Part shown: positions 24,626-62,129 of the stretch, piece by piece
Numbering within the stretch: position 1 is the stretch's first letter
Layout: every line of letters begins with the position of its first letter
Source of the DNA: Burkholderiales bacterium
GTDB taxonomy: Bacteria; Pseudomonadota; Gammaproteobacteria; Burkholderiales; SG8-39
DNA: 64,000 nucleotides
Assembly (NCBI GenBank): GCA_035577785.1
Contig: DATLUZ010000297.1
Span: 7,802-71,801 of the forward strand
Direction of reading: 5' to 3'
Program-made: the position numbers and the translations under genes
The notes under the pieces: model-generated
Seen by the model: only the letters and a program-made list of their open reading frames with translations
Database searches by the model: none
What the model was told of the DNA's origin: nothing

Positions 24626-25672
24626 TTACTGCAGGATTGCCTTGACCCGCTCCCAGTCGTTCGGATATAGGGCGAGCATGCCCGGCTTGTCGATGTCCAG
24701 CACCGAATAGTCGAGTGCGAGGAACTCGCGCCCGATTTCCTCCAGGCGCTCACCCAGTACCCGGGATGCAGGGTCGAGACGACGCACCACGCCCAAGCCG
24801 GTCGGCGCGGTTGCGATCACGTTCACGCTGAGGTCGGGGCGGTATTTCCTGAGCACCAGGACGAGACGCCAGGCGTCGCCGCTCCAGAATACCGTCTGCC
24901 GCTCTCTCTCGGCGGTGAGCCGGTTGAGCGGGTAACAGTCGTGAATCAATATGGTGGAGTCTGGGGCCGCGTGTTTTTCTATGTTGACGAAATCCCGCAG
25001 CGCGAATTCGAATCGGTGCATCCCGTCGATGAAGGCGAGGTCGATGGGCAGGCCTTCCAGATCGGCGCGAACGTCGCGAGTCGCGAAGTAGTCGTCGCTG
25101 GTCGTCGCGACGATGCTCGTGCGGGAGCCGAGCTGCATCTTGAGTTTCGGCGCGGGGTCGATACCGATCGCACGAGTCTCGGGCCGTGCCAGGGCGATCG
25201 ACTGACCCGTCTCGACGCCGATCTCCAGATAGGTACGCGGACGCAGGTGGGAATGGATCGCGGACAATACATCCAGGTAATAGGCACCAGGCAGGTCGAG
25301 ATTGGCGAGCACGGCGAACACCGGTTCGAATCCCGGATCGAGTGCCAGAGCCGCTTCAAGGCAGCGGCGCGTGGCCTCGATTCCGCCAAGCTTCAGATGG
25401 GCTACCGCGGCGTTGAACGCGTGCCGCGCGTCCTTCGGGTCGAGCCGGCGCACCTCCTCGAAATGCTGCAGCGCCTCGCCGTAGCGGCCGTTCTGAAAAG
25501 CGAATCCGCCCACGAAGTGGTGCGCCTGCACGTGCTTCGGGTCGTCACGCAGCACGCGCGCAAAGTGCTCGGCCGCGACCGCATGATTGCCCGCCTGCAA
25601 CGCTGCCAAGGCGGCCTCCAAGGCCGCCTTTCCCGCCGGCTCTGCGGAGCTCGGCCCTGGCATTTCTTTCAC
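24626..25672 (-). CDS. TPR-repeat protein fused to class I SAM-dependent methyltransferase (Methyltransf_24-like)
   Basis: 348 aa with about three N-terminal TPRs. The methyltransferase core follows: YLEIGVETGQS, DLAFIDGMHRFE and ILIHD. Start is GTG 25672 or ATG 25663. Confidence 0.8.
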   Translation of the reverse strand: MKEMPGPSSAEPAGKAALEAALAALQAGNHAVAAEHFARVLRDDPKHVQAHHFVGGFAFQNGRYGEALQHFEEVRRLDPKDARHAFNAAVAHLKLGGIEATRRCLEAALALDPGFEPVFAVLANLDLPGAYYLDVLSAIHSHLRPRTYLEIGVETGQSIALARPETRAIGIDPAPKLKMQLGSRTSIVATTSDDYFATRDVRADLEGLPIDLAFIDGMHRFEFALRDFVNIEKHAAPDSTILIHDCYPLNRLTAERERQTVFWSGDAWRLVLVLRKYRPDLSVNVIATAPTGLGVVRRLDPASRVLGERLEEIGREFLALDYSVLDIDKPGMLALYPNDWERVKAILQ

Positions 25673-25728
25673 TGTGCGTCCAACATGCGGCGACTAGCTT
25701 AGCGCAGGTGGGAAAATGAAGCCTGGTC

Positions 25729-45271: not shown

Positions 45272-45304
45272 GCAAAAGAAAAGCCCGGCGCGTTGCGCCG
45301 GGCT
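45272..45304 (-). terminator. Rho-independent terminator of the small Lys-rich protein gene
   Basis: Minus strand reads AGCCCGGCG-caacg-CGCCGGGCU followed by UUUCUUUUG. Confidence 0.7.
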
Positions 45305-45320
45305 CACGGTCTCGTGCGGG

Positions 45321-45536
45321 TTACTTGGTGTCTTTCTTGGCGTCGCTCGGGGCGGAGCCGGTCTTGGTGCTGCCGGACTTCGCCTTGGTGGATTTCGACT
45401 TGGACGATTTGGCCTTCTTCGTGTCCTTCTTCGCTTCCATCTTCGAGTCGGCCTTCGGCTCCGCCTTGGGGGCCTGAGCATAGGCGCCGAGCGCGAACGC
45501 GGACGCAAAAAGCGCAACAAGCAGTTTCCTGAGCAT
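45321..45536 (-). CDS. Small secreted lysine-rich low-complexity protein (71 aa)
   Basis: GAGGAGA lies 5 nt before the ATG. The signal peptide is MLRKLLVALFASAFALGAYA. The mature 51 residues contain 16 Lys and no aromatic or large hydrophobic residues. The gene has its own terminator. Confidence 0.65.
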   Translation of the reverse strand: MLRKLLVALFASAFALGAYAQAPKAEPKADSKMEAKKDTKKAKSSKSKSTKAKSGSTKTGSAPSDAKKDTK

Positions 45537-59324: not shown

Positions 59325-59717
59325 CTAACGTTTCGAGTACTGCTTGCGCCGCCGCGCCTTGTGCAGGCCAACCTTTTTTCGCTCCACTTCGCGCGCGTCG
59401 CGCGTCACGAGGCCGGCCGCGCTCAGCTGACTCTTCAGCCCGGCATCATACTCGATCAACGCGCGGGCGATGCCGTGGCGCACCGCGCCCGCCTGGCCGC
59501 TCTCGCCTCCGCCGTACACGTTCACCAGGATATCGAAGCTCGCGCCGCTCTTCGTGAGCTCGAGCGGCTGGCGCACGACCATGCGTCCGGTCTCGCGGCC
59601 GAAGAACTGGTCCACGGGCTTGCCGTTCACCACGAAATCGCCCTTGCCGGGCTTGATGAACACTCTCGCGACGGCGCTCTTGCGCCGGCCCGTGCCGTAA
59701 TAGTAGTCGCCGACCAT
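59325..59717 (-). CDS. rpsI: 30S ribosomal protein S9
   Basis: Last 130 codons of ORF 59325..60293 ([19 protein letters not shown]...[11 protein letters not shown]). TAATG overlaps rplM. Confidence 0.97.
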
Positions 59718-60148
59718 TATCCGATCTCCAGTGCCTTGGGCTGCTGCGCCGAATGCGGGTGGCTGCCGCCGGCGTAGACCTTGAGCTTTTTCAGCATCGC
59801 GTAACCGAGCGGCCCCTTGGGGAGCATGCCCTTCACCGCGCGCTGCAGCACGCGCTCGGGCCGGGTGGCACGCAGCTTGGCGAAATTCGTCACCTTCAGT
59901 CCGCCGGGATACCCCGAGTGCCGGTAGTAAATCTTGTCCTCGGTCTTTCTGCCGGTCACGCGCACCTTGGCCGCGTTCACCACGACGACGTAGTCGCCGG
60001 TGTCGACATGCGGCGTGTATTCGGGTTTGTGCTTGCCGCGCAGGCGCATCGCGATCTGCGTGGCGAGTTTGCCGAGTACCTTGTCCTGAGCATCGACCAC
60101 GAACCAGCCGTGCTCGACTTCGCCTGCCTTCGCGGTGTAGGTTTTCAT
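59717..60148 (-). CDS. rplM: 50S ribosomal protein L13
   Basis: ORF 59717..60226 trimmed to ATG 60148 ([20 protein letters not shown]...), giving 143 aa. Confidence 0.97.
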
Positions 60149-60174
60149 TGCTGGCGCTTCGAGAAAAGTGGCGG

Positions 60175-60180
60175 ATTGTA
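60175..60180 (-). promoter_or_regulatory. TACAAT -10-like hexamer between the candidate sRNA terminator and rplM
   Basis: Plus strand reads attgta. It lies 26 nt upstream of ATG 60148. I see no obvious -35 and no SD. Confidence 0.3.
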
Positions 60181-60183
60181 CCC

Positions 60184-60257
60184 AAAAAAATGGCGCAGCT
60201 CCCGAGAGTTGCGCCGAATCCACCAAAGGAGGAGGGTGGAGGAGATTTACTGCATCC
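60184..60257 (-). ncRNA. Candidate ~74-nt sRNA (or rplM leader attenuator) with two CUCCUCC anti-SD motifs
   Basis: The predicted RNA is GGAUGCAGUAAAUCUCCUCCACCCUCCUCCUUUGGUGGAUUCGGCGCAACUCUCGGGAGCUGCGCCAUUUUUUU. Hairpin UCCACC/GGUGGA presents the loop CUCCUCCUUU. A GC-rich terminator hairpin at 60192-60215 is followed by U7. The upstream promoter is TTGCTT-N17-CATAAT. Confidence 0.4.
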
Positions 60258-60264
60258 GGGATCG

Positions 60265-60293
60265 ATTATGCGAGCGGCGATGCTGCAAAGCAA
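60265..60293 (-). promoter_or_regulatory. Putative sigma70-type promoter TTGCTT-N17-CATAAT of the candidate sRNA
   Basis: -35 is at 60288-60293 and -10 at 60265-60270 (minus-strand reading), with an exact 17-nt spacer. Confidence 0.4.
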
Positions 60294-60433
60294 TAGGCGA
60301 CGTTCGGGTTCCGCACTCTCTCGTTAACCATTTGATTTATAGTTAGATAGGAGACACGATCCCGCGCTTTGAACAAGCGGGCGTGTTAGACAATGGTGCT
60401 TAGCACAAGCCATTGATTTCAGAGGGCCCCTGA

Positions 60434-60853
60434 ATGGAATGCAGCGTTCGTTGGACCGGCGAAGGGATGAGCTTCATCGCGGAGACCGGCAGCAACCACC
60501 TCGTGGCGATGGACGGCGCGCCCGACGGCGGCGGCCGCAACCTCGCGCCGCGGCCGATGGAGCTGGTGCTCGCCGGAACGGGCGGCTGCACCGCCTACGA
60601 CGTGGTCGTTATCCTCAAGAAAAGCGGTCAGGACGTGACGGGCTGCGAGGTCAAGCTCACCTCCGAGCGCGCCGAGACCGACCCGAAGGTCTTCACCCGG
60701 ATCCACATGCATTTCATCGTGCGCGGCCGCGCGCTCAAGAGGAACCTGGTCGAGCACGCAATCCGCCTTTCGCACGAGAAGTACTGCTCGGCTTCGATCA
60801 TGCTCGGCAAGACGGCGCAGATCAGCAAGGACTTCGAGATCGTGGAGGGATAG
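60434..60853 (+). CDS. OsmC/Ohr-family peroxiredoxin-like protein
   Basis: 139 aa with two conserved Cys (GGCTAYD, KYCSAS). Confidence 0.88.
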   Translation: MECSVRWTGEGMSFIAETGSNHLVAMDGAPDGGGRNLAPRPMELVLAGTGGCTAYDVVVILKKSGQDVTGCEVKLTSERAETDPKVFTRIHMHFIVRGRALKRNLVEHAIRLSHEKYCSASIMLGKTAQISKDFEIVEG

Positions 60854-60855
60854 CG

Positions 60856-61506
60856 ATGGCGACCAAATTCACCCGCGCCGCGCCCAGCCCGCGCTATCGG
60901 CGTCTCGTGGAGCAATACAAGCTGATGCATTTGCAGGGAGAGACCCACCTCGGCATTCCGCCGGAGAAGACCTTTCCCGGCGAGAGCCTGCCAAAAGAGG
61001 CGGCCCGGATCAAAAAACTGATCAAGCTGACCGGTGCGAAGACGATACTCGACTACGGCGCGGGCAAGGGCCAGCAGTACCTGCCGCTGCGCATCAGCGA
61101 CGAAGAGGAGCGCATCGAGTATCCCGACATCCGCTCGTTCTGGGGTGTGGCCGAGGTCCGCTGTTACGACCCGGCGTACCAGCCTTTTACCGAGCTGCCG
61201 AGGGGAAAATTCGACGGCGTCATCTGCACCGACGTCCTGGAACACTGCCCGGAGGAAGACGTCCCCTGGATCCTCGAGGAGCTCTTCGCCTTCGCCGACA
61301 AGTTCGTCTATGCCAACGTGGCCTGCTTCCCGGCGCGCAAGCGCCTGCCGAGCGGGGGCAACGCCCATTGCACCATCAGGCCGGTGCGGTGGTGGGAGGA
61401 GCAGCTCGACGGACCGGCGCGCGCCAGGCCGCAGGTCCGCTACCAGTTCCGCCTCGCATACATCAAGGCCGACGAGCTGAAGGAGAAGCTGCTGCAGCGC
61501 TGCTAG
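60856..61506 (+). CDS. Class I SAM-dependent methyltransferase
   Basis: Tail of ORF 60439..61506 from ATG 60856, giving 216 aa. Motif I is ILDYGAGKG, and it contains VICTDVLEH. Confidence 0.75.
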
Positions 61507-62129
61507 ACGCGATACGCGATGCGCGTCATGAGCCCGGAGGCAAAGCGCATCGCGAGCTTCACCGGCGCGGGCAGCGCGGCCGCGCCCAGGCGCACCGCGG
61601 TGTCGCGATGGCGCGCTTCGTCCGCCCGCATCGCCTCGACGAGCGTGCGAGTGCGCTCATCCTTCTCGGGAAGGCGCTCGAGGTGCCCCGAGAGGTGCTC
61701 TTCGACCTGGCGCTCGGTTTCGGCGAGAAAACCCAGGTTCCACCGGTCGCCAAGCACGCCGGCAACCGTGCCAATGGTGAACGCGCCGGCGTACCACACG
61801 GGATTCAGCCAGCTCGTGCGGCCTCCGAGTTCGTCCACCCGCTGCGCGCTCCAGGCCAGGTGGTCCTCCTCCTCCCGCGCGGCGCGCTCGAGCGCCCGGC
61901 GCGCGTGCGGATCGCGTGCGGTCAGCGCCTGCCCCTGATAGAGCGCCTGGGCGCACACTTCGCCAACGTGGTTAACGCGCATGAGCGCCGCGGCGTGCCT
62001 GCGGTCGTGCTCGCTCAGCTCGGCCTCGGGCAGCGCGGCGGCGGGCGAAAGCCGGCTCGGTTCCGCAACGCTGCTGACGGTGCGCAGCGCCCGATCGAAT
62101 TCGGCGATCAGCCGGTCGATGTTGATCAC
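61503..62129 (-). CDS. coq7: Demethoxyubiquinone hydroxylase Coq7
   Basis: 208 aa with a GTG start and di-iron ExxH motifs (EEEDHL, DEARH). Confidence 0.9.

Follow-up and report, generated by a model that had tools for sequence, protein, structure and literature searches.

The osmC-rplM spacer contains a probable small RNA gene

The stretch analysed here is a 64-kb piece of DNA from a Burkholderiales bacterium (contig DATLUZ010000297.1), referred to as the window throughout. Towards its end an osmC-like gene diverges from the ribosomal-protein genes rplM and rpsI, and the spacer between osmC and rplM holds, on the minus strand and in the orientation of rplM, a compact element composed of a promoter, two CU-rich motifs complementary to Shine-Dalgarno (SD) sequences, two hairpins and a U-tract. 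The element is very probably an independently transcribed, trans-acting small RNA (sRNA) of about 74 nucleotides (nt) that belongs to the Rfam family RF02278, has its positional orthologue in NcS27 (bdhR1; Sass et al. 2015, 2017, 2019) of Burkholderia cenocepacia and is a close homologue of S17S of Bordetella pertussis (Sim et al. 2024 preprint). What carries this reading is observed in the window and in orthologous loci, namely the family membership, the anatomy of the element, its synteny, and a promoter, core and terminator that are conserved.

The coordinates, collected in Table 1, all come from a direct reading of the minus strand of the window. An initial annotation of this DNA had placed the promoter, the start at G60257, the motifs, the hairpins and the U7 tail, and every one of these positions was confirmed by this reading. 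The spaced pair CTCCTCC-N3-CTCCTCC occurs once in the window, against a mean of 0.08 in shuffled sequence. The initial annotation had also seen no credible open reading frame (ORF) over the region, which agrees with our finding that the listed ORFs are mechanical read-throughs or antisense frames. A coding reading was rejected accordingly, the RNA having nothing but AUG-CAG-UAA, which is not conserved in the orthologous locus L009. Two further readings were tried and set aside. A function of the plus strand finds no T-run past the hairpin and no well-placed start codon after the GGAGG strings, and the Rfam match lies on the minus strand only. A sigma-54 promoter, prompted by the TTGCA-like strings, was rejected by eye, with no GG/GC pair at the required 12-nt offset.

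Table 1. Positions of the sRNA element, its flanking signals and the genes discussed (window numbering unless a locus is named)
Feature	Coordinates	Strand	Remarks
sRNA unit	60257-60184	-	predicted, ~74 nt
-35 element TTGCTT	60293-60288	-	3/6 match to TTGACA
Promoter spacer		-	17 nt between TTGCTT and CATAAT
-10 element CATAAT	60270-60265	-	nATAAT-like hexamer kept in orthologous loci
Predicted transcription start	G60257	-	8th nt past the -10; based on the NcS27 start-site spacing from differential RNA sequencing (dRNA-seq)
AAAUCUCCUCC		-	read from the predicted transcript
Site 1, 5' anti-SD motif AAUCUCCUCC	60247-60238	-	single-stranded
Twin CUCCUCC motifs	60244-60238 and 60234-60228	-	
Hairpin 1	60240-60219	-	6-bp stem, UCCACC (60240-60235) / GGUGGA (60224-60219)
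Anti-SD Site 2, CUCCUCCUUU	60234-60225	-	10-nt loop of hairpin 1
Terminator hairpin	60215-60192	-	GC-rich, UCGG loop, one A.C mismatch; from the fold
Terminator tail	A60191, U7 60190-60184	-	whole intrinsic terminator 60215-60184
TGC-N3-GCA palindrome, 9 bp (TGCTTTGCA)	60292-60284	.	overlaps the sRNA -35
TGC-N3-GCA copies in L009	1000-1008, 1054-1062		
TGC-N3-GCA copies in L012	2218-2226, 2302-2310		
rplM -10 box TACAAT	60180-60175	-	after GGG, 3 nt past the sRNA U-tract; no recognisable -35
CTTTTCTC	60168-60161	-	six nt past the -10; predicted rplM mRNA 5' end, +1 = C60168, 20-nt leader
rplM (ribosomal protein L13)	60148-59717	-	Pfam Ribosomal_L13 on identical metagenome contigs
rpsI, argC			downstream of rplM; Pfam Ribosomal_S9 and Semialdhyde_dh on identical metagenome contigs
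osmC-like gene	60434-60853	+	divergent; Pfam OsmC, E 3.2e-16
coq7	61503-62129		
dctP	51743-50607	-	TRAP-transporter solute-binding gene, first of its operon; Pfam DctP; among the GGAGGAGG-SD genes
dctM	about 49828-48497	-	same TRAP-transporter operon

Family membership and secondary structure

The initial annotation had suspected a relation to the toxic small RNAs of Betaproteobacteria, and an Rfam search bore this out. RF02278 (Betaproteobacteria toxic small RNA, or double-hairpin RNA) matches 60247-60185(-) over its full length (model positions 1-64 of 64) with 54.5 bits and an E-value of 3.5e-8, where the gathering score of the family is 50 bits, and it is the sole Rfam match in the 64 kb to reach a family gathering score. 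A permissive Rfam E-value scan of the window found no second copy of RF02278. Our own covariance model, built from the first recognised copies, scores the element at 78.4 bits (E ~1e-16). The interval 45276-45329, considered as an extra copy, received 16.9 bits from the same model (E 0.34) and was treated as chance. Elsewhere in the window, an rpfG-RNA-like Rfam match at 25599-25678 (-) reaches 25.9 bits where the gathering score is 75.9 (E 0.2), and it most likely arose by chance.

Folding of the 74 nt with RNAfold gave -23.4 kcal/mol (z = -2.16; 3 of 200 shuffles fold as well) and recovered both hairpins of the initial annotation. The minimum-free-energy (MFE) and centroid folds share hairpin 1 (6 bp) and the terminator (9 bp), after which come A and U7. 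In the centroid fold the first CUCCUCC is single-stranded at 60244-60241 and enters the 5' arm of hairpin 1 with 60240-60238, and the MFE fold takes up part of this stretch in a weak 5' helix of 4 bp; the second CUCCUCC lies within loop 1. The structural features of RF02278 are thus present: two hairpins, the second of which is a Rho-independent terminator with a U-tract, and CU-rich stretches complementary to ribosome-binding sites (RBSs) at the 5' end and in loop 1.

A chance juxtaposition of promoter-like hexamers, a CU-rich stretch and an intergenic hairpin could be argued from the modest z-score of the fold and from the negative outcome of a generic promoter and terminator scan, described below. 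The strongest evidence against it is the Rfam match above the gathering score, to which are added the score of our own model, the same-locus copies in 15 genomes of several families and the covariation of the terminator, both reported in the following section. Chance is effectively refuted by these observations, and we regard its probability as negligible.

Distribution and conservation across rplM loci

For comparison we used 80 rplM loci from species-representative genomes (designated by L numbers); since they were picked by the similarity of L13, the sample is unbiased towards the presence of the sRNA. An RF02278 copy above the gathering score lies upstream of rplM, in the same orientation, in 15 of the 80 loci, and our own covariance model and the Rfam model agree on these same 15. 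They comprise the metagenome-assembled genomes (MAGs) L009 and L012 (Betaproteobacteria) and L070, Polynucleobacter, two Dechloromonas, one Rhodocyclales MAG, two Thauera, two Undibacterium, two Burkholderia, Cupriavidus and Caballeronia, and in all but one of them (14/15) osmC is found divergent upstream. No copy was found upstream of rplM in the sampled Comamonadaceae-type genera, Massilia, Duganella, Janthinobacterium, Gallionella, Nitrosomonas, Alcaligenaceae or the gammaproteobacterial loci, and osmC is a neighbour of rplM in many loci that lack the element. The distribution over the 80 loci therefore points to an element that is old, widespread and repeatedly lost. As a home for this sRNA, the osmC-rplM spacer extends over Burkholderiaceae, some Oxalobacteraceae and Rhodocyclales, again with repeated losses, and it may be the ancestral location of the gene.

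The two closest rplM relatives in GTDB differ from the window at this position. L010 has no intact copy, and its osmC-rplM spacer is only 51 nt long. L011 (2895-2965), whose RplM is 80% identical, keeps the promoter (TTGCAA-17-CATAAT), with the body and terminator reduced to GTCTCTTCAACCCCGTTTTTT; it is a decayed copy, the promoter of which would now run into rplM. An uncultured betaproteobacterium (L014) carries UUCCUCCUCCU and then a terminator in the same osmC-rplM position (2840-2910). This divergent, CU-rich and RNA-like element reaches 25.6 bits with our own model, stays under the Rfam gathering score and may be a diverged homologue.

Conservation of the CU motifs and hairpins had been named in the initial annotation as a check on its proposal. 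Site 1 (UCUCCUCC) is unchanged in 14/14 orthologues, the core UCUCCUCCAC...GGUGGA is invariant in 14 orthologous sequences, and the loop Site 2 varies in Polynucleobacter and Undibacterium only. The terminator stem covaries, with compensatory double changes among orthologues in eight of its nine pairs. Its cells are paired in 96-97.6% of cases, compared with 35-47% when the partners are slid, and its covariation score of 0.495 compares with 0.19 for shuffles (0/500 reach it) and with at most 0.134 for slid partners. The stem of hairpin 1 shows no variation in the 14 sequences.

Upstream of every orthologue we found TTGCnn, a spacer of 16-17 nt and an nATAAT-like hexamer, at a distance from the core that ranges from a few nt to ~130 nt. 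The conservation of this arrangement therefore supports the promoter proposed in the initial annotation despite its weak -35; from its own sequence alone, the promoter call is weaker than had been implied.

Relationship to NcS27, S17 and other double-hairpin RNAs

In B. cenocepacia J2315, ncS27 is located at 3666557-3666648 (-), between BCAL3348a and BCAL3349, an 'OsmC-like protein', and beside BCAL3348, the 50S ribosomal protein L13 (PMC5688073 supplement). Because ncS27 is placed in the OsmC-like/L13 spacer, we take the window element to be its positional orthologue; the two share this spacer and the orientation of rplM, as do the elements of 14 other genomes. NcS27 is a discrete 92-nt RNA whose transcription start site (TSS) and 3' end are mapped, with processing immediately ahead of AUGUCUCC (PMC5688073). 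Its sequence runs AUUGGUUGUCGCGCUGCGGCAACCUCCGA up to the mapped processing site and continues with AUGUCUCCUCCACCCUCCUCCUAAGGUGGAUU... beyond it (PMC5688073 supplement). The TSS of NcS27 (locus L063) is reached from TATAAT over 7 nt, with A(+1) as the 8th nt (PMC5688073 supplement), and the same -10 spacing gives G60257 as the predicted start in the window.

Beyond the locus, NcS27 and the window element have in common the Rfam family, the double-hairpin architecture, the spacing from -10 to TSS and a core, UCUCCUCCACCCUCCUCCU, that is identical at 19 of 19 positions and is followed by GGUGGAUU. They differ at the end of the loop, which is AA in NcS27 and UU in the window. The 92-nt primary transcript of NcS27 also has an additional hairpin on its 5' side, which processing cuts off, whereas the window element has none: with a predicted TSS only ~11 nt ahead of Site 1, it would need no processing. 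This 5' extension is present in L012, L050, L053 and L063, while L009 and L057 are short like the window, and as a variable feature it does not define the family. A further difference concerns the distance to rplM, since the Burkholderia sRNA lies ~650 nt from it with BCAL3348a in between, whereas in the window the terminator adjoins the rplM -10 box.

For function we rely on published work on the relatives. Four J2315 paralogues of RF02278 are discrete, Northern-verified RNAs (PMC4603805, PMC5688073), growth is slower when ncS27 is overexpressed and faster with antisense to its CU region (PMC5688073), and NcS27 acts on amino-acid and carbohydrate utilisation genes (review PMC10987360). In B. 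pertussis, S17 is Hfq-enhanced, RNase E releases S17S from a 190-nt precursor adjoining coq7, and Site 1 of S17S represses the sigma-54 activator BP2158 via direct pairing, as shown with compensatory mutations (PMC11722255). The 5' 27 nt of S17S are reported to be 100% conserved over Burkholderiales and Rhodocyclales, and bdhR1 is reported to differ from S17 by 2 nt in this region (PMC11722255). Because of this reported conservation and 2-nt difference, we read the 27-nt region as the orthologue consensus GUCUCCUCCACCCUCCUCCUUUGGUGG, which the window would match at 26 of 27 positions.

S17S and the window element both combine two anti-RBS sites with a terminator, their Site 1 is homologous, and coq7 is nearby in both, being adjacent in Bordetella. 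Unlike the window element, the S17S precursor is BvgA-dependent, contains a 32-codon ORF and is not upstream of rplM, where the Alcaligenaceae loci L040 and L062 have no copy. At other loci are the RF02278 paralogues ncS03, ncS05 and ncS62 of B. cenocepacia and Hsnc059, Hsnc063, Hsnc086 and Hsnc107 of Herbaspirillum seropedicae, double-hairpin RNAs of 57-67 nt with unpaired CU-rich stretches, whose TSS lies directly before Site 1, as predicted for the window. NmsR/RcoF of Neisseria likewise direct two CU-rich unpaired stretches at the RBSs of metabolic genes, a resemblance noted by Sass et al. (PMC5688073), but they form a tandem pair of another sequence family, are not matched by RF02278, and resemble the window sRNA in function only. 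The stand-alone promoter-to-terminator anti-SD sRNA favoured in the initial annotation is in this way supported by Rfam, by synteny with NcS27 and by the TSS spacing.

The rplM promoter and the attenuator alternative

A second promoter module separates the element from rplM. In most inspected loci, with or without the sRNA, a TAnAAT-like -10 box is followed by 6 nt and CTTT(T/C)C; deviating -10 boxes, at one position each, are TAGCAT in L041 and TAAGCT in L059. In B. cenocepacia the 5' untranslated region (5'UTR) of BCAL3348 (L13) starts, by dRNA-seq, with CUUUUCCGC (PMC5688073 supplement). Because the -10/CTTT(T/C)C module is conserved and the L13 mRNA of B. cenocepacia has its mapped 5' end at the first C of CTTT(T/C)C, rplM is predicted to start on its own, ~16 nt past the 3' end of the sRNA. 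In the window, L009, L010, L011, L040 and L062 this promoter has no recognisable -35 and takes the form of a T-run, 3-4 nt, TAnAAT, 6 nt and CTTTTC(+1). In the window its -35 position, GGGAGC (60203-60198), sits in the 3' arm of the sRNA terminator stem. In the Alcaligenaceae loci (L040, L062) a different terminator adjoins the rplM -10 box in the same manner.

These observations bear on the alternative offered in the initial annotation, a cis-acting attenuator or leader of rplM-rpsI, in which transcription would start at 60257, the hairpin and U7 would gate read-through, and the short RNA would be a by-product. The element is indeed co-oriented with rplM, and its U-tract stops 35 nt short of the rplM ATG; the rplM promoter of this lineage has no recognisable -35, since the terminator stem covers that position, so that some read-through is conceivable; and L011, having kept the sRNA promoter and lost body and terminator, would now transcribe into rplM. 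However, the U-tract precedes the predicted -10 and start of rplM, which leaves the structure outside the rplM transcript, and the conserved module downstream of the terminator coincides with the CUUUUCC that dRNA-seq places at the 5' end of the B. cenocepacia L13 mRNA. Moreover, the sRNA terminator is 70 to ~650 nt from rplM in 13/15 orthologous loci, many of which have a full TTGAC(A/G)-17-TAnAAT rplM promoter between sRNA and rplM, and in B. cenocepacia even an annotated gene, BCAL3348a, intervenes. Copies of RF02278 are found at unlinked loci as well (B. cenocepacia has four, H. seropedicae four and Bordetella one by coq7), osmC-rplM pairs lacking the element are common, and the CU motifs would find no SD-like partner in the rplM leader. 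We consider an attenuator very improbable on these grounds.

In Escherichia coli, L13 autoregulation involves the rplM leader, a part of the rplM mRNA 5'UTR directly upstream of the gene. The window element shares the position just upstream of rplM, but it ends before the predicted rplM +1, and the leader there is 20 nt long.

Proposed mode of action and candidate targets

As an independently transcribed sRNA, the element would be started near G60257 by the sigma-70-type promoter TTGCTT-17-CATAAT and ended by the intrinsic terminator at U7 (60190-60184). Its single-stranded 5' end (UCUCCUCC) and the loop of hairpin 1 (CCCUCCUCCUUU) would offer complements to GGAGG-type SD sequences, and through these CU stretches it would pair with the RBSs of a set of transport and carbon-metabolism mRNAs and block the initiation of translation, probably with Hfq on the terminator and U-tail. 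We infer the expression, exact 5' end, Hfq dependence and targets of the element from its relatives, and in the characterised ones transporters, solute-binding proteins and carbon-catabolic genes make up most of the targets.

The best in-window target candidate is predicted to be dctP. Its SD, GAGGAGGAGGG, stands 6 nt before the AUG and has 10 contiguous base pairs with Site 2; the duplex, at -24.6 kcal/mol, lies about 5 standard deviations (sd) from the mean of -8.3 (sd 3.1) and is the best of the 1783 candidate starts in the window. A solute-binding protein would also fit the reported target classes.

The RNA might instead act mainly as a decoy, drawing off a pyrimidine-binding component (ribosomal protein S1 or Hfq, for example), or imitate the 3' tail of 16S rRNA, rather than pair with specific mRNAs. 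The motif CACCCUCCUCCUUU does resemble the 16S 3' end CACCUCCUUA, the established anti-SD, and the core is nearly invariant across orders, an unusual constraint for an sRNA seed that matches evolving targets. The family was discovered through its toxicity when cloned in E. coli, according to Kimelman et al. 2012 as cited in PMC4603805, an account compatible with global translation interference. Yet S17S overexpression is not notably toxic in E. coli BL21, and repression by S17S returns when Site 1 and the BP2158 5'UTR carry compensatory mutations, a demonstration of specific pairing (PMC11722255). NcS27 overexpression, in turn, affects growth on particular substrates only and changes the expression of predicted targets (review PMC10987360). 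A decoy or mimic thus seems highly unlikely to us, and we retain repression through pairing with individual RBSs.

Several points nonetheless weigh against the element being an independently transcribed RF02278 sRNA of this kind. The Rfam margin is just 4.5 bits over the gathering score. The -35 is weak (3/6 against TTGACA), and a generic consensus scan of 59500-61000 for sigma-70 promoters and intrinsic terminators called neither; we did not take this as absence, because the -35 agrees at only three of six positions and the scanner does not allow the mismatch in the terminator stem. Since L010 and L011 are without an intact copy, the element is dispensable in close lineages. Hairpin 1 is invariant, and covariation therefore neither supports nor contradicts it. 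The target prediction covers 64 kb and 1783 crude start-codon candidates. Finally, the TSS, the 3' end and the discrete RNA are predictions in this uncultured organism.

A position-locked palindrome at the sRNA promoter

The TGC-N3-GCA palindrome that overlaps the sRNA -35 recurs at a fixed -35 or about -55 position in 13/17 orthologous sRNA promoters, compared with 8.8% of background 100-nt windows. A second copy (60405-60397) lies 29 nt upstream of the osmC ATG, and L009 and L012 show the same arrangement. The palindrome is a candidate operator for a transcription factor and may correspond to the unnamed 'upstream motif' of Sass et al. (Fig. S3). Locked in position as it is, it offers a way to search for the factor that regulates these carbon-metabolism sRNAs.

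In the window, L009 and the decayed L011 the layout is unusually compact, and the sRNA terminator and U-tract occupy the -35 and spacer positions of an rplM promoter without a -35. Such a layout might couple a growth-arrest sRNA to a growth-rate-controlled ribosomal-protein operon by one of two routes: transcription and termination of the sRNA would occlude the rplM promoter, or read-through of the terminator would supply part of the rplM-rpsI mRNA. A factor binding TGC-N3-GCA, over the sRNA -35 and before osmC, might then govern both units. We allow this coupling an outside chance.

Genomic neighbourhood and host

The exact L13 protein of the window is present on ENA soil-metagenome contigs that carry a porin gene, coq7, a 216-aa methyltransferase-like gene, divergent osmC and rplM-rpsI-argC. 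The nearest RplM relatives in species-representative genomes are Betaproteobacteria/Burkholderiales MAGs with 80-81% identity. Taken together, relatives no closer than this and the soil origin of the contigs lead us to regard the host as an uncultured soil betaproteobacterium. A betaproteobacterial host is what RF02278 would call for, and it is indicated both by the RplM relatives and by the gene order coq7-osmC-rplM-rpsI-argC, which is common to many Betaproteobacteria.

The element itself is already known: it belongs to a curated RNA family as an ordinary member, and its orthologue is a characterised sRNA. Its identification adds little beyond correct annotation, which places the RF02278/NcS27/S17 family in an uncultured soil betaproteobacterium, and the modest additions are the osmC-rplM location, the promoter palindrome and the compact junction of terminator and promoter. 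In the Burkholderiaceae loci L017, L050, L053, L057 and L063, an RNase P RNA gene (RF00010) is found just past osmC (about 1000-2170), so that two non-coding RNA genes flank osmC.

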